Source of the DNA: an uncultured Lachnospiraceae bacterium
Lineage (GTDB): Bacteria > Bacillota > Clostridia > Lachnospirales > Lachnospiraceae
Length of the DNA stretch: 64,000 bases
Direction: 5' to 3'
Assembly (NCBI GenBank): GCA_947174015.1
Contig: CAMWHJ010000005.1
Span: 5,014-69,013 of the forward strand
Under the pieces are notes generated by a model. That model was not told the DNA's origin and made no database searches. It saw only the letters and a program-made list of their open reading frames with translations. The translations under genes and the position numbers were made by a program. Of this stretch, positions 50,365 through 58,513 are shown one piece after another. Within the stretch, counting starts at the first letter, position 1, and each line of letters starts with the position of its first letter.

Positions 50365-50380
50365 GAGAGAGGTGCAGACT

Positions 50381-51079
50381 ATGAAAGAATATCAAGGTTT
50401 TACTGCCAATGCTTTGAAAATAATTGCTATTGTTACCATGTTGATTGACCATATTGGTGCTGCACTGGTATGGCAGATGGTGGGGCAGCAGGGAGATACC
50501 TTTTACATAATATACCGGGGGATGCGTCTGATTGGCAGAATTGCTTTTCCCATTTACTGTTTCTTTATTGTGGAGGGTTTCAGGCATACCAGAAGTGTGA
50601 AAAAGTACATGGCAAGGCTTGCGGTTTTTGCAATCATCTCAGAGATTCCTTTCGACTATGCATTTATGGGCGGGCTCACTCTGAGTTATCAAAATGTGTT
50701 CTTTACCTTAACTTTGGGTCTGGCATGTATCTGGGGATTTCAGGAATTGGAAGTCAGAATGAAAGCCGGATTGGCACAGACAGTATTAAAAATAGTTGTG
50801 ATGCTGGTAATGGCAGAAGCAGCGGAACTTTTACATACGGATTACGGTGACTTTGGAGTCATAATCATTGCAGTTCTTTATCTGTTTCAGAAGAAAAGGG
50901 GAATACAGTGTATTGTGGGAGCCTTGGGTTTTGCATGGGAAGTGACGGCACCTTTGTCCTTTGTGCTGCTTTATTTTTACAATGGAGAAAAGGGTAAGCA
51001 GGTAAACAAATATTTATTCTATGGTTTTTATCCGGTACATTTGGCGGTGATTGGTGCAGTGAGAATGCTGTGTTTTTAA
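50381..51079 (+). CDS. TraX-family membrane protein
   Basis: LKIIAIVTMLIDHIG N-terminal signature. Polytopic. Confidence 0.8.
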   Translation: MKEYQGFTANALKIIAIVTMLIDHIGAALVWQMVGQQGDTFYIIYRGMRLIGRIAFPIYCFFIVEGFRHTRSVKKYMARLAVFAIISEIPFDYAFMGGLTLSYQNVFFTLTLGLACIWGFQELEVRMKAGLAQTVLKIVVMLVMAEAAELLHTDYGDFGVIIIAVLYLFQKKRGIQCIVGALGFAWEVTAPLSFVLLYFYNGEKGKQVNKYLFYGFYPVHLAVIGAVRMLCF

Positions 51080-51121
51080 GTTTGGTATATCGGAAGATAC
51101 GGTAATAGTGATTACAAATAA

Positions 51122-51172
51122 AGCAGTTGTCACTTTACGGTTTTTGAATCGTGAAGTGACAACTGCTGTTTT
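51122..51172. terminator. Bidirectional terminator between convergent traX and cotJC
   Basis: AGCAGTTGTCACTT and AAGTGACAACTGCT form a 14-bp perfect stem. GTTTT lies on the + side and TTATTT on the - side. A second 10-bp hairpin lies at 51182-51214. Confidence 0.6.
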
Positions 51173-51221
51173 AATTCATGGCAATAGAAAGTTTGCAGAG
51201 CGTGCTTTCTATTGTTTCACA

Positions 51222-51834
51222 TTAATTACAACCACAGTTACAATCGTTACGATTTGGTTTTGGCATCACATTTGCAGTGTTAGTTTCATTGCTATTGCAG
51301 TTGCAGTTAGAAGTTTTCTGGGGGCAGTCAAAAGCAGGGTTAAAGGCATAGAAGTTTTTCGCATCCAGATGCTCCTGTACAATCCGCAGGGCTTCACCGA
51401 AACGCTGGAAGTGTACAATTTCACGCTGACGCAGAAAACGAATGGGATCTGCTACATCATGGTCATGTACCAGACGCAGTATGTTGTCATAGGTGGAGCG
51501 GGCTTTCTGTTCCGCAGCCAAATCTTCCACCAGATCGGTGATGGGATCTCCCTTAGACTGAAATTCGCATGCATTAAAAGGAATACCGCCAGCAGCTTGG
51601 GGCCATAAGCCGGTGGTGTGGTCAACATAATATTTGTCAAAGCCGGAAGCTACAATTTCGTCGGGGGTGAGATTTCTGGTAAGCTGGAATACAATGGTGC
51701 CTACCATTTCGAGATGTGCTAATTCTTCCGTTCCGATATCCGTCAATGTTCCCATAACCTCCCGATAAGGCATTGCATACCGTTGGGACAGATAACGCAT
51801 GGAGGCAGCCAGCTCTCCATCAGGACCACCAAAT
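51222..51834 (-). CDS. cotJC: cotJC 3-prime segment (Mn-catalase-family spore coat protein, residues 29-231 of the reconstituted protein); not translatable on its own from the native start
   Basis: Reads FGGPDGELAASMRYLSQRYAMPYREVMGTLTDIGTEELAHLEMVG... (di-metal ligand motifs of the CotJC/Mn-catalase family). The frame is closed by TGA 36 nt upstream of the junction core. Confidence 0.9.
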
Positions 51835-51849
51835 AACGTTAAGATATAG
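51824..51849. repeat. Element/chromosome junction 1 (att half-sites): core GACCACCAAAT plus inner arm ACGTTAAGATATAG
   Basis: The core is identical to 57561-57571. The arm 51836-51849 is the exact reverse complement of 57541-57554. Confidence 0.85.
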
Positions 51850-51907
51850 CACTGTTTTTCCTTGCAAAATCAAGGTTTTCAGACAAACCAAGACTACAAT
51901 ACGACTT

Positions 51908-53344
51908 TTATGATTTGTAAAATATGATTTCAAGAGATTTGCTCTCACGCTGGTATTTGATTTCTTTTACAATCTGCCGGAGAGAGGAGGCCTTTTCTTC
52001 GGAATCAGCATCAGACCGGAGAAGTTGAGCCACAGTTTTGCAATCCTCCATCAGTTGCCTGCGCAGCAGTGGAGAATCCTCCGGCATTTTTGTTTCAAAT
52101 ATTTTCTGCTCTATTTCATGCCGTTCCTTTTGTATGGCTTCTTTATTTTCTTTATATTCTTCCAAAGTATCAATTTCTGCCAGATAAGCCTCTTTACAGC
52201 GTTTTTCCTTTTTATCCAAATATGCAAGCTGTTTCTTGAAGTTGGCAAGGTCAATCTTCATATTCGCCTTTGGCAGAATGTCAAAATGGATGGTATCATA
52301 GTCCACATTATCCAAAATTTCAAGCAGCATTTTCTCCATATTATTCTGTGAAATATAACAGGAGCCGGGATGCATTCCCTTAGTATATTTGTAACACTGG
52401 AATCCTCCCTGTTTATTTTCCGGGTGATAATAAGTCATGGTAGCACCGCATACACCGCATTTTAAAAGACCACAGATGTAATGCTTTGAATATCCTACCC
52501 CTTTACGTCTTGCAGGGGTATATGAGCTTTCTATGCGTTTCTGAACATCATTAAAATCCCCTTCGGATATAAGAGGTTCATGTTTTCCGTCAGCAATAAT
52601 GATGTCATCCGGGTCATGATTCTGGTGCGAAGAATGGGAGGCACGATTCCAGCGAACTTTGCCAATGTAAAAAGGATTTTGCAAAATATAGCGAACGGTT
52701 CTGAGTTCAAAAGGATATCCACGCTTGGTCTTATGCCCCTGTTCATTTAATTTTCTTGCAATACTGGAAAAATCAATGCCTTCTAAATAAGATGTGTAGA
52801 TATACTTTACAATGGCAGCCTCTTTCTCATTGACCATTGGAATTTTGCCGGGAACAGAATCGTATCCGAGAGGAGCAGCGGACTGGTAGCCTCCCCGCAA
52901 TGCTTTTTCTGTCATGCCCCGCCGTACTTCACTGGCCAGATTAATGGAGTAAAATTCATCAAACCATTCGATAATGCGTTCAATCAGTGAACCAAAAGGC
53001 CCCTCTATAATCGGTTCACTGATCGATATCACATTTACACCGTTTTTTTCAAGTAAGGATTTGTAGACAATGCTTTCTTCCTGGTTTCTGGCAAAACGTG
53101 AGAATTTCCATACAAGGATAGCATCAAATTCTCTGTTTCTGGCAGCAACGATCATTTTCTGAAATTCTGGCCGCTTATCTGCCTTTTTCCCCGAAATTCC
53201 GTTTTCCATATAGATATGATCCGCAAGGACCTCATATCCGTTTTTCTTGGCATATTCAATCAGAAGTCGTTTCTGGGCATCCGGGGAGAGCTCCTCCTGT
53301 TTGGAGGTGCTCACCCGGATATAGAGAGCAGCGGTATTCTGCAT
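51908..53344 (-). CDS. large serine recombinase (SpoIVCA/phage-integrase type)
   Basis: N-terminal resolvase catalytic domain (AALYIRVSTSKQ with the nucleophile Ser; VWKFSRFARN), a recombinase domain, a zinc ribbon (CGLLKCGVCGATMTY...FQCYKY) and a C-terminal coiled coil. 478 aa. Confidence 0.95.
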   Translation of the reverse strand: MQNTAALYIRVSTSKQEELSPDAQKRLLIEYAKKNGYEVLADHIYMENGISGKKADKRPEFQKMIVAARNREFDAILVWKFSRFARNQEESIVYKSLLEKNGVNVISISEPIIEGPFGSLIERIIEWFDEFYSINLASEVRRGMTEKALRGGYQSAAPLGYDSVPGKIPMVNEKEAAIVKYIYTSYLEGIDFSSIARKLNEQGHKTKRGYPFELRTVRYILQNPFYIGKVRWNRASHSSHQNHDPDDIIIADGKHEPLISEGDFNDVQKRIESSYTPARRKGVGYSKHYICGLLKCGVCGATMTYYHPENKQGGFQCYKYTKGMHPGSCYISQNNMEKMLLEILDNVDYDTIHFDILPKANMKIDLANFKKQLAYLDKKEKRCKEAYLAEIDTLEEYKENKEAIQKERHEIEQKIFETKMPEDSPLLRRQLMEDCKTVAQLLRSDADSEEKASSLRQIVKEIKYQRESKSLEIIFYKS

Positions 53345-53365
53345 ATTTATCTCATCCTTTCAAAG

Positions 53366-53379
53366 TTGCACCGGTGCAA
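53366..53379. promoter_or_regulatory. Perfect 14-bp palindrome TTGCACCGGTGCAA between the hicB stop and the recombinase RBS
   Basis: It abuts the hicB TAA stop and lies 21 nt upstream of the recombinase ATG. An identical copy sits at 54315-54328. Confidence 0.4.
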
Positions 53380-53775
53380 TTATCGCACGCCGATTTTCTG
53401 AATTAAAGCTTCTTGAAGTACCTGAGAAAAGTTTACACCATAGGCAGTAGCTTCCTCGTTGAGCCATTCCGGAATAGTAAGGGTTTTCTTAACCGCCTTA
53501 TTGTTATACATTTTTCGATATTTCATCGTATCTGCTTTTATATAGTTTACAAATTCGTTTTCCATAAGATGAATATCTGAGGGATTGCTTGGTTCTGGGA
53601 TTGTCTTGCCGTCTACTTCGTAACCATATAGCACAAGTGCAAGGACATCCTCTGCCATTTCAATTCCCTCTTCTAAAGTGTCAGCACATGTATAACAGCT
53701 TTCCAAATCCCTGAAAGTAATAGAGTAATTTCCCTCCGGCTCCTTTGTAAAAATGGCTGGATATACATACTTCAT
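53380..53775 (-). CDS. hicB: HicB-family antitoxin with a C-terminal ribbon-helix-helix-like DNA-binding tail
   Basis: MKYVYPAIFTKEPEGNYSITFRDLESCYTCADTLEEGIEMAEDVL (HicB/UPF0150 fold) and C-terminal TLTIPEWLNEEATAYGVNFSQVLQEAL. Confidence 0.85.
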   Translation of the reverse strand: MKYVYPAIFTKEPEGNYSITFRDLESCYTCADTLEEGIEMAEDVLALVLYGYEVDGKTIPEPSNPSDIHLMENEFVNYIKADTMKYRKMYNNKAVKKTLTIPEWLNEEATAYGVNFSQVLQEALIQKIGVR

Positions 53776-54005
53776 AAGATAACCTCCTTAAGATATATAA
53801 ATAGTATGAGGTATTGCATGGGTGATATCCCTGCATCCTCTCTAATGCGGTTGCAAGTTCCGGTTGGAACATCCTGAGATGGATGCCTTGGCACAGGAAA
53901 ACTCTTTCCAGTGTGGGGGCTGAATCAGATATCATGCCTCTTGCCATGCCTTTGCAGGTAACAGCCGTTTTTCTTTAGTAATTTGATAAGTTCAGATACT
54001 TTCAA
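53772..54005 (-). pseudogene. hicA: hicA toxin gene inactivated by an in-frame TGA at codon 27
   Basis: TTG start after AAGGAGGG. Reads LKVSELIKLLKKNGCYLQRHGKRHDI, then TGA (53927-53925), then FSPHTGKSFPVPRHPSQDVPTGTCNRIREDAGIS. HicA homologues have Trp (TGG) at the TGA position. The terminal TGA overlaps the hicB ATG. Confidence 0.75.
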
Positions 54006-54030
54006 TCCACGCCCTCCTTTCACTATAATT

Positions 54031-54059
54031 AATATAGCACGTATATACACGTGTGTCAA
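54031..54059 (-). promoter_or_regulatory. sigma-A promoter of the hicA(pseudo)-hicB(-recombinase) transcription unit
   Basis: TTGACA, 17-nt spacer, TATATT. The spacer CACGTGTATATACGTGC is itself near-palindromic and is a likely HicB operator. Confidence 0.6.
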
Positions 54060-54107
54060 TGACATGTATAGGTAGAGTGTAAGGTGACAATTTCTAATAT
54101 CCAATGC

Positions 54108-54305
54108 CATAAAAAGACAAAATATGAGTTTACAAAATAAAAATAATATGATATACTTGAGAAGTAGTCAGATGTATCTTAAATTCTCCCCTAAAGATAT
54201 TAGATGCATCAAAGATTACTCCCTCTTCATATTAGTAATTTTTGCAAACCGCAGCATAGATGATATGCTGCGGTTTTCTCTTTCGTAAAAGTAAAGTCTT
54301 GACAA
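54108..54305. repeat. Copy 1 of a roughly 200-bp direct repeat (about 95 percent identical to 55067-55266)
   Basis: Base-by-base comparison shows only a handful of substitutions and one 2-nt indel. Confidence 0.95.
54164..54283 (+). ncRNA. Candidate small RNA, copy 1 (about 120 nt), divergent from the hicA promoter
   Basis: TTTACA (54129), 17-nt spacer, TGATATACT extended -10 (ends 54157). Terminator is a 12-bp perfect stem AACCGCAGCATA/TATGCTGCGGTT (54247-54275) plus TTCTCTTT. C-rich motifs CTCCCCT and CTCCCTC. Confidence 0.4.
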
Positions 54306-54314
54306 GCATCAAAG

Positions 54315-54328
54315 TTGCACCGGTGCAA
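54315..54328. promoter_or_regulatory. Second copy of the palindrome TTGCACCGGTGCAA, abutting the stop of the second hicB
   Basis: Identical 14-mer with the same flanks (CAAAG...TATCG). Immediately follows the hicB TAG. Confidence 0.4.
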
Positions 54329-54736
54329 CTATCGTACACTGGTTTTTTTGGACATATCCAGAAGGGCATCCTGCAATATTTTTGAGAAATTTACATTGTT
54401 TTTTTCTCCAAAAGTATTAAGCCATGCAGGTAAAGTGATGTTTTTGCGTACTGTCTTTTCCCCATATTTTTCTGAATAAGTGTCCATGTCAAGGACCAGC
54501 AGATTAACAAAACTTCCAGTGGGAACTTCCAGTTCAGTGAACTCAGAAGCAGCAGGAATGGAGTTTCCTTCTTCCAATTCCAAAAGAATCCAACCGGATG
54601 CTGCATCCGTTCCCATCTCAATGGCATCAATTAGGTTATCGCCTTCACTAACGCAGCCGGGCAAGTCAGGAAAGGTGACTGTATAACCGTCTTTTTCGAT
54701 ACATGGCATAAAAATTGCCGGGTAAATGAGTTTCAT
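54329..54736 (-). CDS. hicB: HicB-family antitoxin (second, diverged copy)
   Basis: MKLIYPAIFMPCIEKDGYTVTFPDLPGCVSEGDNLIDAIEMGTDA... and C-terminal ITLPAWLNTFGEKNNVNFSKILQDAL. AGGAG lies 9 nt upstream of ATG 54736. Confidence 0.85.
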   Translation of the reverse strand: MKLIYPAIFMPCIEKDGYTVTFPDLPGCVSEGDNLIDAIEMGTDAASGWILLELEEGNSIPAASEFTELEVPTGSFVNLLVLDMDTYSEKYGEKTVRKNITLPAWLNTFGEKNNVNFSKILQDALLDMSKKTSVR

Positions 54737-54765
54737 ATTCATACACTCCTTTTTCGGAAGCAAGA

Positions 54766-54948
54766 CTATTTTAGTCCTGCTTGTTTTAATATTGAATTAG
54801 CGGTACCTTTATCGACATCTCCGGCATGAAAAGGTATTGTCACCTTTCCGGGTTTGGAATCATGCTTGTAATGTCTATGGGAGCCGACTTGTCGTATCAG
54901 GTGCCAGCCATCCTCTAATAATATCTTTTCAAGTTCCCTAGCTCTCAT
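54766..54948 (-). CDS. hicA: HicA-family mRNA interferase toxin (intact)
   Basis: 60 aa, MRARELEKILLEDGWHLIRQVGSHRHYKHDSKPGKVTIPFHAGDVDKGTANSILKQAGLK. AAGGAGG RBS. Confidence 0.9.
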   Translation of the reverse strand: MRARELEKILLEDGWHLIRQVGSHRHYKHDSKPGKVTIPFHAGDVDKGTANSILKQAGLK

Positions 54949-54974
54949 CTTTAATGTGCCTCCTTATAGTTATA

Positions 54975-55002
54975 ATTATACACATTATACACACAAAGTC
55001 AA
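54975..55002 (-). promoter_or_regulatory. sigma-A promoter of hicA-hicB module 2, with palindromic operator candidates
   Basis: TTGACT, 16-nt spacer, TATAAT. A 17-bp palindrome ATGTGTATTATACACAT lies just upstream. Confidence 0.5.
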
Positions 55003-55066
55003 TAGAAGATGTGTATAATACACATAAATAGTATGAGGTATTGCAGGGTTTATATCCCTGCGATGT

Positions 55067-55266
55067 CATAAAAAGACAAAATATGAGTTTACAAAATGAA
55101 AATAATGTGATATAGTAGAAAAGTAGTCAGATGTATCTTAAATTCTCCCCTAAAGATAGTAGGTGCATCAAAGATTACTCCCTATCTTCATATTAGTAAT
55201 TTTTGCAAACCGCAGCATAGATGATATGTTGCGGTTTTCTCTTTCGTAAAAGTAAAGTCTTGACAA
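55067..55266. repeat. Copy 2 of the roughly 200-bp direct repeat
   Basis: See 54108-54305. Confidence 0.95.
55123..55244 (+). ncRNA. Candidate small RNA, copy 2
   Basis: TTTACA (55088), 17-nt spacer, TGATATAGT. The terminator stem 55208-55236 carries one C-to-T change that converts a G-C pair to G-U, so the stem is preserved. Confidence 0.4.
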
Positions 55267-55369
55267 AATTCTGGTCAAGAATAACTTTTTTTAAGTGAAA
55301 AAATGTCAAGAATAACAGATAAAAGAAAAGCCCATGTAAAATGCAGGGGCTTTAGAAAATGGCTGGAAA

Positions 55370-56188
55370 TTAGCTTACTCTTAGACTAAGTGTTTCATAA
55401 TACTCTCGTGCTCCGGGGATTTTGGTAAATACAGCAGTATTATTAAACTGTTTCTTCACTACATCCTCAATCTCATCAATGCTAACATGAAAGAACTCCT
55501 TTCGAAGATTAACCAGATTGACACGCTGATTTTGGAAATGTTTATGCAATGCATGTTCTAGTGCCGGAGCATCATCTGAGAATATCATGGCATGAACATC
55601 AAACTCAAATGGAACAGAAGCACTGCTGAGTTCTTTTACACGATCCATAGGTTCCAAGCGGCGTGTCATACCAATTTTATAAATGTCCTCTCCAAAAGAA
55701 CCAATATTCGAGATAATATAGACATAACCTGCTTTTGCATTCGCTTCTCGTTCGAGAACGGTATTTTTTTCAGATTCCAGTTGTCTCAAGCGTTCCTCTA
55801 GTTCTCTGATTTTATCAATATATAATTGTTTTTCAGCAGAATCATTAGAGTTTTGCATATATTGCATCAGACGTTTCATTTCATTGTTGTGCTGAGCTTG
55901 GTCTTTTTCAATTTTGGCTTTTTGACGTTCGATTTCTTTTCTGACTTTTTCTTCTTCTGCCATTTGCTCACGGATAGAGCGTTGTATCTCTGCCTCCTGT
56001 TCTTTTTTCAACTCAAAGGTATAAACAAGATTCCACTTATCTAATTTCAGTTTTAAAATTTCAAGGTTTAGTTGGACACCGTCTACCACAAATATCTTAC
56101 TTAAGAGTTTCAAAAGATTTTGAAATCTTTTCACGAAAGGAGAGATATAACATGGTAAGTACTGCAGTAGAAAACAAAAATTACACAC
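55370..56188 (-). pseudogene. N-terminally truncated DUF4041 / T5orf172 (GIY-YIG-like) domain protein
   Basis: C-terminal GYVYIISNIGSFGEDIYKIGMTRRLEPMDRVKELSSASVPFEFDVHAMIFSDDAPALEHALHKHF...KEFF is a T5orf172 domain, preceded by the coiled-coil part of DUF4041. Homology is lost upstream of about 56130, and the first 20 or so codons of the ORF look like junk. Confidence 0.65.
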
Positions 56189-56319
56189 CAGAAGAATTAG
56201 CAGGTCTTTGCAGATTCTTAGAAGTTTATAGAAAGCCTTGGAAAATAGAAAGGAGAGTGAAAAACTGGATTGGCGATATCACACTAAGGGTCAAGGTAGA
56301 TAAAGAAAGCATGAATTAG
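56152..56319 (+). CDS. 55-aa hypothetical ORF at the truncation point of the DUF4041 gene
   Basis: AAAGGAGAG RBS 7 nt upstream of the ATG. No recognisable domain. May be a gene fragment. Confidence 0.25.
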   Translation: MVSTAVENKNYTPEELAGLCRFLEVYRKPWKIERRVKNWIGDITLRVKVDKESMN

Positions 56320-56486
56320 AGAAACAGCATGAAATGCTAGGGAGAACAATTACAGAACTAAAGAAAATGGTAGAAGTAGAAAAAAGAACCCACCAGAGGG
56401 CAGGTTTCTAAAAACGGACAGGTGTGAATAACCGCATAGCGTACAAACCATAGAACATAAATTAAAAAAAGAAAGGAGGGGTAGTT

Positions 56487-56666
56487 ATGGCAGCAAAACC
56501 ATTACCACTTTCAAATGGATTCTCTGCAATTATTCACGTAGAGCAGACGGATGGAACTGTAAAAGACATTCAATCATGGGAAGAACTATCAGAGGAGTTT
56601 AAGGTACTGAACCCACAGGCATTGCGTGCAGTAGGACTTGTGCCGCATAAAGACAATGCCGGATGA
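56487..56666 (+). CDS. 59-aa hypothetical protein (below the ORF-track cutoff)
   Basis: Strong RBS AAAGGAGGGG 6 nt upstream of the ATG. Reads MAAKPLPLSNGFSAIIHVEQTDGTVKDIQSWEELSEEFKVLNPQALRAVGLVPHKDNAG. Confidence 0.4.
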   Translation: MAAKPLPLSNGFSAIIHVEQTDGTVKDIQSWEELSEEFKVLNPQALRAVGLVPHKDNAG

Positions 56667-56719
56667 TGAGAACAAAAAATAGAATGCGTTTATTGAACTG
56701 ATGGACTGAAAATTGAATA

Positions 56720-56838
56720 TTGGCTGTGCACCAGAAGCCGCACTGGGATCCTCATTGATACGATATATTTCAAATACTCCACCTCAATAATAATAGATTT
56801 GCTGCAACCTTCCGGTGCGGTGTCTAGTGCACAGCCAA
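56720..56838. repeat. Imperfect 29-bp inverted repeats flanking a 61-bp spacer
   Basis: TTGGCTGTGCACCAGAAGCCGCACTGGGA (56720-56748) versus the reverse complement of 56810-56838. The outer 12 bp are perfect, with 24 of 29 matching overall. Confidence 0.7.
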
Positions 56839-57069
56839 AGCAAAAAAGAAGAAACAAACAACAAATGGCAAGATTAACTTATAAAAACAAAAATGGAACA
56901 TGGGGACTTAACAACGGTTACGATATGCACAAAGTTCCGAAAGAGTTGTATGGAGTTCTGTGGAAATTAAAGGATTATTATAAAAGAGTGGCAGCAGGTC
57001 CTGAAAAAACGCCTCATCAAAGAAGACAGGGAACTATCAAGAATCAGTGCCGTAAAACGAACAGAAAAC

Positions 57070-57203
57070 ATAAAAGAACTGCAGGAAAACCCATAGAGCA
57101 GGTTCAGGCAATGCTAGGGCATGAGAGCATAGACACAACCCTAATCTATGCAAGAACCAACGATTCTACTGTAAAAGAAAGCCACAAACGATATTTAACA
57201 TAA
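57070..57203 (+). pseudogene. C-terminal fragment of a tyrosine recombinase/integrase
   Basis: AGKPIEQVQAMLGHESIDTTLIYARTNDSTVKESHKRY carries the LGH...TT..Y catalytic-Tyr motif. The upstream part of the same ORF (MARLTYKNKNGTWGLNNGYD...WKLKDYY) is an unrelated phage-type fragment. Confidence 0.6.
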
Positions 57204-57540
57204 GGAGGCAACAGGTGGAATTGCGTATCGACAGCAGGTAAGCTGGTTATACAACAGTTGAGGTAAAACAACATTCCAGTGTTTTACATGCACCCACAAA
57301 GCTTTTGCAGGAAAGTATATTGGAAAAGAAATTTTCCTATGAAGGATCAAAACTTTATGAAATCAATTTCCAAAACGCAAGGTGTGTGGAGGATAACAAT
57401 TTGAACAAATATGTGAATAAGAAAATGGAAAATTCGGAGCCAAGACTAAGCAGGCTTGTCGGACAGTTTCAGAAAAAAGTAGTGCGAAAACCAGAGGAGC
57501 CCAGATTGTGCAGGCAAATAATTTTTACAAAATATAAATA

Positions 57541-57571
57541 CTATATCTTAACGTAATTCAGACCACCAAAT
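57541..57571. repeat. Element/chromosome junction 2 (att half-sites): inner arm CTATATCTTAACGT, 6-nt spacer, core GACCACCAAAT
   Basis: See junction 1. Arm and core are exact matches. Confidence 0.85.
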
Positions 57572-57654
57572 TGAGATATAATAACCTGTGCCAGCTTAGG
57601 ATTGGAAGTTTTAATATTTACCGGATACTGCAATTTTTTTTCATAACTCCACAT
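57561..57654 (-). CDS. cotJC: cotJC 5-prime segment (codons 1-31 of the reconstituted gene)
   Basis: The ATG directly follows the cotJB TAA. MWSYEKKLQYPVNIKTSNPKLAQVIISQFGG is a typical CotJC N-terminus. In the integrated state it runs into the element and stops after LNYVKI. Confidence 0.9.
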
Positions 57655-57930
57655 TTAGCAATTTCCTCCTTCCCAAGGCCATGGGGATAGCACCCAATCC
57701 CATTTCGTTTGACTGTTGCCAGTAAGAGCCAGAGTCAAAGGAGTGAAACGGGTAGAATATTCTTTCATGGCTGTATTTTTCATTTCCACACATTCCTGAT
57801 AGAATTTCAAAGCCTCCATATCATCAGGATGGGTATCCAAATAGAGGGCAGTTTCCACCACCGCAAAGCTAATCATGTGAATCCAGTCAAAAAGTTGTTC
57901 ACGATTCATACGACTGCAGCTGGAATTCAT
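57655..57930 (-). CDS. cotJB: spore coat protein CotJB
   Basis: FAVVETALYLDTHPDDMEALKFYQE...WDWVLSPWPWE matches the CotJB signature. Confidence 0.9.
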   Translation of the reverse strand: MNSSCSRMNREQLFDWIHMISFAVVETALYLDTHPDDMEALKFYQECVEMKNTAMKEYSTRFTPLTLALTGNSQTKWDWVLSPWPWEGGNC

Positions 57931-58139
57931 GGGCAGGCCCTCCTTCCGATAAATGGTTTATCTAATTCGGGAAATAGAGTACCCTGCTGCAGTGCTTTGT
58001 CAAAATCGTAAATCTGATTCCATGTCTGCCAAGGTACATAAGTCATGCCAACAGGAAAATGATCGGGAAATCCTTCTCTTTTTTGATAGGGCATGCAACG
58101 TTGCTGGGGCATGGAACGGTTACATCTACAATCTGCCAT
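57927..58139 (-). CDS. cotJA: spore coat-associated protein CotJA
   Basis: GMTYVPWQTWNQIYDFDKALQQGTLFPELDKPF matches the CotJA signature. ATG 58139 lies after AAAGGA (the ORF opens at TTG 58157). Confidence 0.8.
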   Translation of the reverse strand: MADCRCNRSMPQQRCMPYQKREGFPDHFPVGMTYVPWQTWNQIYDFDKALQQGTLFPELDKPFIGRRACP

Positions 58140-58171
58140 CCAAGCAAATCCTTTCAAAGAATGTTCATAAT

Positions 58172-58198
58172 TATAGTATGCGGCTGATAAGGATATGT
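58172..58198 (-). promoter_or_regulatory. Candidate mother-cell (sigma-E/sigma-K type) promoter of cotJABC
   Basis: On the minus strand: AC, 16-nt spacer, CATACTATA. This fits sigma-K AC-N16/17-CATANNNTA, and the -10 also resembles sigma-E CATACA-T. It ends 33 nt upstream of the cotJA ATG. Confidence 0.4.
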
Positions 58199-58513
58199 GA
58201 ATGGCAAATAGCTACTTGTACAAAATTCACAAAGATAAATAAAAAGTAAAAAAAATGGAATAATGACAGTTAAGTAACTCAAAAAATAAAAACTGGTTTT
58301 TAAAAGGAAAAATTGTCCATAAAGAAACTGTCAGGAAAAAAAATAAATTTATTTACAAATGAGTGACACATGATATTTCGGTAAAAATGACGAAAAGTTT
58401 ACAAAACATTGAAAAATGAAAAAAAATATGTGCAAAATGTGAACAAAAGTGTTATACTGAGATGGAAACATATAGACGGATTTAACAAAAAATGTGAAAG
58501 GAAGGAAAAAGAT

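Follow-up and report, generated by a model that had tools for sequence, protein, structure and literature searches.

The stretch of DNA analysed here, 64,000 nucleotides from an uncultured Lachnospiraceae bacterium (assembly GCA_947174015.1, contig CAMWHJ010000005.1, positions 5,014 to 69,013 of the forward strand; hereafter the window), carries a sporulation gene, cotJC, that is split by a 5,737 bp element containing a full-length gene for a large serine recombinase (LSR). The sequences of the two junctions, those of related elements and the uninterrupted sites of related phages together indicated that the ends of the element are very probably the attL and attR sites of a degenerate integrative element that entered cotJC by means of its own LSR. 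Developmental excision of the element, suggested by analogy with known systems, we place at even odds. For the explanation as a whole, attachment sites and developmental excision together, a compromise probability of about 0.8 was adopted.

Junction sequences and symmetry

A sequence-only reading of this DNA had reported the two junctions and the complementarity of the 14-mers beside them, and when the window was read again all of these sequences and coordinates were found as described. Junction 1 (51824-51849, + strand) is GACCACCAAAT-A-ACGTTAAGATATAG and junction 2 (57541-57571, + strand) is CTATATCTTAACGT-AATTCA-GACCACCAAAT. The direct repeat GACCACCAAAT is exactly 11 bp long, with no extension either way, and has only two copies in the window; the mean number of matches in shuffled sequences was 0.03, and two or more matches were obtained in 0 of 100 shuffles. 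The 14-mers ACGTTAAGATATAG and CTATATCTTAACGT are exact reverse complements and are unique in the window even when two mismatches are allowed, and, if one mismatch is accepted, the inverted repeat is 18 nt long (51832-51849 and 57541-57558). As reconstructed, the circle junction would consist of 14 + 18 + 14 nt. The arm contributed by the element (P arm) at 51827-51850 is CACCAAATAACGTTAAGATATAG, and an identical arm was present in two further samples (L029 and L030); the P arm at 57540-57563, read outward, is GTCTGAATTACGTTAAGATATAG, and the arm contributed by the host (B arm) at 57564-57587 is CACCAAATTGAGATATAATAACC.

C51826 and C51827 flank the dyad axis, as do C57563 and C57564, and the axis falls inside the 11 bp core. 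About this axis the reconstructed attP (46 bp) was symmetric at 18 of 24 positions, with all other axes giving 11 or fewer; the background, taken from 200,000 random window positions, had a mean of 6.0, a standard deviation of 2.2 and a maximum of 17. The host site (attB) was symmetric at 12 of 24 positions about the attP axis (P ~0.008 per random position), which made this axis the best among the 50 neighbouring axes tested. Part of the attB symmetry arises because the codons GGN-GGN-CCN put CC at positions 3-4 in each half. Within cotJC, the core runs over codons 28-32 (Q-F-G-G-P) and holds the axis dinucleotide CC/GG; the predicted crossover CC reads GG in the sense of cotJC, that is, the first two bases of the Gly31 codon. 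Two details of the sequence-only reading had to be adjusted. It had set the core over the dyad centre, which the core does cover, but the axis falls 3 bp into the core on the + strand and not at its middle; and it had located a weakly symmetric host site inside codons 28-32, where the location was right but the symmetry is better described as moderate.

The recombinase

The LSR matched the Pfam families Resolvase (residues 5-152, 2e-32) and Recombinase (residues 173-272, 2e-26), and its match to Zn_ribbon_recom (residues 292-342, 9e-5) scored 23.2 bits, slightly below the Pfam cutoff of 25.3 bits. The protein has the catalytic motif RVSTSKQ, with Ser12, and, as read from its sequence, a heptad-rich coiled-coil region at about residues 350-430; it also matched PHROG integrase family 95 at 2e-117. 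Homologues 37-67% identical to it are abundant in metagenomes, and homologues of 480-496 aa were listed. A look-up of the LSR protein itself gave no match, and a PDB sequence search with it gave matches only to other serine recombinases, in their N-terminal catalytic domains.

Related elements in cotJC

Loci carrying LSR homologues were inspected in GTDB genomes, assemblies and IMG/VR. At about 25 loci, from Lachnospiraceae, Ruminococcus and Oscillospiraceae metagenome-assembled genomes (MAGs), an LSR 37-67% identical to that of the window adjoins a cotJC fragment, and every break lies inside GGNG/GNCC (Gly30-Gly31-Pro32; here and below the stroke marks the axis). Junctions of relatives lying elsewhere in the gene had been named as the result that would make the 11-mer a coincidence; since the cotJC break always falls within GGNG/GNCC in these loci, the 11-mer is not coincidental. 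The junctions of the family confine the exchange to GGNG/GT, and a single site can serve very diverse hosts because GG, at its centre, is what all Gly codons share, and this Gly codon lies in a strongly conserved motif. The P arms are conserved at C3, C4, A7, Y8, C11, A15, A20, T21, A22, A23 and T24, counted outward from the axis, and these positions keep one register whichever side of cotJC abuts the arm.

The polarity of the att core relative to the integrase gene varied among the loci, the 3' end of the LSR gene adjoining either the 5' or the 3' fragment of cotJC. One polarity was found in L001, L006, L043, L014-L018, L011 and L037, and the other in the window, L005, L044, L013, L019-L026 and L038-L042. 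The two types were interleaved on a neighbour-joining tree of 25 LSRs, which implied at least three flips; the interior of an integrated element might, for example, invert between its terminal inverted P arms.

A conserved 10-mer, AAAATCAAGG, was also noticed on the LSR side of the axis. It lies at the same distance in the window, L044, L005, L001 and L043, with flanks that are otherwise unconserved, and was missing from L006; the LSRs of those four relatives are 63-67% identical to the LSR of the window. The 10-mer lies outside the normal LSR site, and in L043 it was kept though another gene had been inserted between it and the LSR gene. The combination of AAAATCAAGG with the outer P arm was considered as an outward sigma-70 promoter and rejected, as the spacing was poor by inspection and the promoter scan gave no hit there.

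Uninterrupted attP sites in phage and viral contigs

Four phage or viral contigs (L044, L039, L042 and L037) contained an intact attP directly after the stop codon of the LSR gene. The phage contig L044 carries genes for lysozyme, holin and baseplate proteins, and its LSR is 63% identical to that of the window; its attP, ATTATATCCTAGCGGTATTCGGTG/GTCCGGATTTCGCTAGGATATAAT, has arms that are perfectly symmetric at positions 11-23 about GGTG/GTCC and has 16 bp in common with the cotJC of L031-type hosts. The attP of L039, TTATCTGTTTTTGG-GATACGGGG/GTGCATACT-CCAAAAACAGATAA, consists of two perfectly inverted 14-nt arms separated by 18 nt, with GGGG/GT at the centre, the same layout as in the window reconstruction; that of L042 is a close variant, and prophages of the L039 type were found integrated in cotJC (L038 and L041). 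In L037 (Bajarodcaudo virus 3, PQ006094), 12-nt arms surround a GGAGGT core and one arm is one base off. Axis and arm spacing matched the window in three of the four free sites, the most distant, L037, being one base off, and the free sites put the axis on the G/G of the second glycine codon exactly as the reconstruction does.

Upstream of the integrase gene of L044 (930-1500) there are two tandem units with repeated flanks, each encoding a short hydrophobic peptide (about 28 aa, e.g. MSTYEELMVILTTAMLIVSILNMKNKK) and resembling type I toxin or holin-like toxin loci.

Half-sites and a 5 bp shift of the outer motif

All four half-sites of the window have C3, A7 and T8 in common, the presumed recombinase-domain motif. 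Further out, AGATATA occupies positions 16-22 in both P arms and positions 11-17 in the B arm on the 5' side of cotJC, where it is 5 bp closer to the axis; the outer part of the left 14-nt arm is the presumed zinc-ribbon-domain (ZD) motif. When the arms were compared at different shifts, the 5'-side host arm of the window gave an identity of 0.73 at +5 bp and of 0.08-0.50 at other shifts, and that of the family gave 0.48 at +5 and 0.16-0.38 at other shifts. The 3'-side host arm of the window reached 0.50 at +5 and up to 0.54 elsewhere (+11).

The model for serine-integrase sites places the ZD motif at bp 16-24 in attP and at bp 11-19 in attB (PMC3783163), and the +5 bp shift of the outer motif in the window matches the attP/attB difference of Rutherford et al. 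2013. As in that model, built on the Listeria A118/LI integrase, the window has an inner recombinase-domain motif common to attP and attB and an outer ZD motif that is shifted in the 5'-side B arm; the sequences themselves are unrelated, and the second B arm of the window fits the model only partly.

The interrupted host gene

The interrupted gene is the third of the cotJA-cotJB-cotJC operon, and the same gene order was found in L031-L036, where cotJC is intact. Removal of the 5,737 bp in silico gave an uninterrupted in-frame CotJC of 231 aa on the minus strand, beginning MWSYEKKLQYPVNIKTSNPKLAQVIISQFGGPDGELAAS..., which was 85-92% identical to intact CotJC or manganese-catalase proteins of related Lachnospiraceae; over 195 residues, the rejoined open reading frame (ORF) and intact orthologues were 92% identical. 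The split gene has not decayed, since it contains neither stop codons nor frameshifts, and its ratio of non-synonymous to synonymous substitution rates (dN/dS) was ~0.02-0.03 with dS saturated. The C-terminal cotJC fragments adjacent to the elements of relatives are also open, over ~168 codons. A look-up of the 192-aa cotJC fragment led to the two samples already mentioned, L029 and L030, which have junctions identical to those of the window. In B. subtilis, cotJ is expressed in the mother cell.

In public annotation, the 3' fragment (P0122; L029/L030) is a 192-aa 'manganese catalase family protein', and the interruption is hidden because this protein was called from an internal Met. CotJC ends in a Cys/Asn-rich tail of about 30 residues (…CNCNSNETNTANVMPKPNRNDCNCGCN; 51222-51320, minus strand), which is missing from orthologues of 200-211 aa; one 224-aa homologue (P0121), with 99% coverage of the query, reaches the tail region. 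In the region 50372-58409 of the window, the cotJABC operon has TraX and GerA on one side and a surface protein of ~1,700 aa on the other, and in some related genomes it is inverted relative to these neighbours: the orientation in L031 is that of the window, and in L034 and L001 it is the opposite one.

Cargo of the element

The cargo is mostly decayed, while the recombinase gene and both ends stay intact (Table 1). Searches with Pfam and PHROG recognised no replication, transfer or virion genes left in the element. The duplicated hicAB module, together with its flanking hairpin terminator (53360-55266), forms direct repeats about 960 bp apart with segments that are 87-99% identical; the LSR-proximal hicA is a frameshifted remnant, so that an orphan hicB stands immediately upstream of the recombinase gene. 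The intact 59-aa ORF has homologues in L005 and L006 (42-44% identity) and is the only shared cargo ORF besides the truncated T5orf172 gene. It had no Pfam, PHROG or NCBIfam match, a word-indexed search retrieved only the ORF itself, and among 1.8 billion representative proteins it had almost no homologues, HMMER giving two marginal matches to long, apparently unrelated proteins.

Table 1. Features of the cotJC region and of the inserted element, with window coordinates
Feature	Position	Strand	Remarks
cotJC 3' fragment	51222-51834	-	codons 28-231 and stop; co-directional with the LSR gene
Hybrid attachment site, cotJC 3'-fragment/LSR end (putative)	51803-51850		host B arm 51803-51826; element P arm 51827-51850
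11 bp core, copy 1, GACCACCAAAT	51824-51834	+	predicted crossover dinucleotide CC 51826-51827
Intervening element	51827-57563		5,737 bp; bounded by the predicted crossover points
Left 14-nt arm, terminal inverted repeat, ACGTTAAGATATAG	51836-51849	+	half-site positions 10-23
Conserved 10-mer AAAATCAAGG	51866-51875	+	40-49 bp from the axis, LSR side
LSR gene	51908-53344	-	478 aa, full length; 60 bp from one junction
hicAB toxin-antitoxin module, duplicated	53380-54948	-	
hicB	53380-53775		
hicA remnant	~53925-54110		frameshifted
hicB	54329-54763		
hicA	54766-54948		
T5orf172/GIY-YIG-type gene	55370-56188	-	5'-truncated; 272 aa against 440 aa in L005 (82% identical)
59-aa ORF	56487-56666	+	intact; strong ribosome-binding site
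Decayed cargo	56799-57556	+	tyrosine-integrase C-terminal fragment ~57069-57203; weak terminase-like fragment 57305-57430
Hybrid attachment site, cotJC 5'-fragment end (putative)	57540-57587		element P arm 57540-57563; host B arm 57564-57587
Right 14-nt arm, CTATATCTTAACGT	57541-57554	+	exact reverse complement of the left arm
11 bp core, copy 2	57561-57571	+	predicted crossover dinucleotide CC 57563-57564
cotJC 5' fragment	57561-57654	-	codons 1-31 and first base of codon 32
cotJB	57655-57930		cotJC 5' fragment directly downstream
cotJA	57927-58157		first of cotJA-cotJB-cotJC
Predicted rejoined cotJC (attB) junction			CTCCATCAGGACCACCAAATTGAGATATAA
Predicted attP (circle) junction			TAACGTAATTCAGACCACCAAATAACGTTA

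Proposed excision

In the mechanism that we propose, each junction would be made of one P half-site of the element, with the consensus nnCnnAAT(A/T)ACGTTAAGATATAG, and one B half-site of the host, formed by the coding sequence round Phe-Gly-Gly-Pro-Asp. Two recombinase dimers would bind the junctions and then synapse; both strands would be cut at the central dinucleotide, probably the GG of the Gly31 codon (CC on the + strand at both axes), and the half-sites would rotate and be religated. The products would be a precise in-frame cotJC and a 5,737 bp circle with a 46 bp near-palindromic attP. If skin, SPβ and gin are taken as analogues, excision would most likely need a directionality factor, and it would most likely occur in the mother cell during sporulation, so that the germ line would retain the element. 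The developmental timing is suggested by this analogy, by the open and conserved cotJC fragments and by a recombination module that seems to have outlived the rest of the element. Known LSRs require a directionality factor for the excision direction (PMC5595907; PMC12286644); the best candidate here, a weak one, would be the 59-aa ORF.

Discussion

The layout of a large-serine-recombinase attP, proposed by the sequence-only reading, was borne out by the full-length LSR, the junctions of the relatives, the geometry of the free attP sites and the 5 bp motif shift. Its remark that the sites are intact while most of the cargo is decayed was likewise correct, perfect arms standing beside truncated T5orf172 and hicA, integrase and terminase remnants. 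Its further proposal, that recombination is still under selection, is made plausible by an LSR and two sites that survive whole next to truncated genes, but it was not demonstrated: neither a directionality factor nor a sporulation promoter, an empty site or a circle was found.

Several observations weigh against attachment sites that still serve a developmental excision. No directionality factor was recognised when the small ORFs were searched with Pfam, PHROG and NCBIfam, a failure that says little because directionality factors share neither a motif nor synteny (PMC12286644). Simple consensus scans for sigma-E and sigma-K promoters gave nothing upstream of either the LSR gene or the 59-aa ORF, and the LSR gene and hicB seem to form one transcription unit behind a promoter of housekeeping type, a sigma-70-like sequence at 54059-54031 that could drive both genes. 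No intact cotJC of this species, at 100% identity, was found in a collection of 5.8 billion proteins, where the closest were 85-92% identical, and the exact attB 30-mer was not found in metagenome contigs. The attP circle junction was not found in viral or metagenome contigs with a degenerate 34-nt pattern of the Lachnospiraceae group, which included the reconstructed site of the window but was too strict, as it also missed the real attP of L044. In the shift scan, the 3'-side host arm of the family gave 0.24 at +5 bp and up to 0.31 at +7, with no peak at +5. Finally, dN/dS was discarded as a test of selection since the insertion, because synonymous sites are saturated and selection after the insertion is therefore inseparable from selection before it.

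Some of these observations would also be expected of an inert relic, that is, of genuine former attachment sites at which excision was lost (for example, when the directionality factor disappeared with the cargo), leaving a dispensable cotJC permanently split. Besides the decay of most of the cargo, the failure to find a directionality factor or a sporulation promoter and the lack of an empty site or circle in the protein and contig collections, this explanation agrees with a report, as cited in PMC12122855, of B. subtilis cotJ mutants without obvious defect. The LSR ORF is nevertheless full length, the 14-nt P arms still mirror each other without a mismatch, both cotJC fragments keep an open frame and 92% identity to intact orthologues, and an unrecognised directionality factor says little for the reason given above (PMC12286644). 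We consider such a relic unlikely.

An ordinary mobile element without a developmental role, for which the conserved Gly-Gly-Pro coding motif of cotJC would provide a stable and quasi-palindromic target across many Clostridia and which would answer to excision signals of its own (induction, transfer), seems to us unlikely as well. The relatives include phages and mobilisable elements (lysozyme, holin and baseplate genes in L044, Rep and PcfJ in L001), attP is present in free viral genomes, the LSR gene has an apparent housekeeping-type promoter, and the symmetry of the core GGNG/GNCC may simply be due to the codons. The window element, on the other hand, keeps its recombination module without recognisable replication, transfer or virion genes, and insertion in the coding sequence of a mother-cell gene is a hallmark of developmentally excised elements (PMC5595907). 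A housekeeping promoter for the LSR is no argument against a developmental role either, because the recombinases of SPβ and of the C. difficile skin element are constitutive and only the factor is controlled by sporulation. That the repeats are coincidental, or that another enzyme such as a tyrosine integrase made the insertion, is extremely improbable: the repeats are far beyond chance, and although a C-terminal tyrosine-integrase fragment (57069-57203) lies near junction 2, the ~25 LSR-homologue loci have the same junction without it. This fragment, only ~45 residues long and missing from related loci, was rejected as the inserting agent.

A bolder form of the developmental interpretation, which we regard as quite doubtful, is that of a minimal domesticated developmental switch made of a recombinase, two sites and an unconventional directionality factor, belonging to a large, undescribed family of cotJC-targeting integrases of gut Clostridia with repeated polarity flips. 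The factor could then be the 59-aa ORF or the orphan HicB upstream of the LSR gene, and AAAATCAAGG could be an accessory control site.

Elements that intervene in sporulation genes are well established, namely skin, SPβ, vfbin and gin (PMC5025042; PMC5595907; PMC5499854). The skin element in sigK (SpoIVCA in B. subtilis; CD1231 and the directionality factor CD1234 in C. difficile) is, like the window element, degenerate and prophage-like, lies in a mother-cell gene and has its own LSR; both have a short shared core and flanking inverted repeats, and the precise excision that rebuilds the gene in skin is predicted for the window (PMC5025042; PMC5595907). They differ in their target, sigK or cotJC, and in size, 48 kb for the B. 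subtilis skin against 5.7 kb, and neither a directionality factor nor sporulation control was recognised in the window element. The gin element in gerE of B. cereus ATCC10987 (GirC and GirX) is also a gene-intervening element without phage genes, but it measures 28.6 kb and has three recombinase genes, whereas the window has a single one; its authors report no attB symmetry, in contrast to the 12 of 24 positions found here about the attP axis. SPβ in spsM (SprA and SprB) shares with the window the LSR-mediated insertion in a sporulation gene and the preference for a symmetric host coding sequence, and its recombinase is constitutively expressed (PMC5499854). SPβ is an active phage, unlike the window element, in which no phage functions are present. 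It is also far larger. To our knowledge, the element described here is among the smallest gene-intervening elements known.

In Bacilli, cotJC had been described as a gene in which integration is frequent (Abe et al. 2013, cited in bioRxiv 10.1101/2021.11.22.469490), and a skin-like element has been reported in cotJC of Laceyella sacchari (bioRxiv 10.1101/2022.02.25.481979). The accessible portions of these reports give no att sites; in the present family the hosts belong to the gut Clostridia, and the site could be placed at Gly30-Gly31-Pro32. A literature search found no paper on this Clostridial cotJC-targeting family or on its att sites. The kind of element is thus already known, as is the target, and what is new is this small, cargo-decayed example from gut Clostridia.

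The family provides natural attP/attB pairs from orthologous integrases that are 37-67% identical and have one protein-constrained target in common. Such a series should be useful for understanding how serine integrases read their sites, as the 5 bp ZD shift is visible from sequence, and it could extend integrase toolkits. For annotation, it means that the 192-aa 'manganese catalase' of these MAGs is a piece of an interrupted cotJC. With this element, cotJC of gut Clostridia joins the sporulation genes that are split by recombinase-bearing elements, with the point of exchange mapped to an invariant Gly codon.

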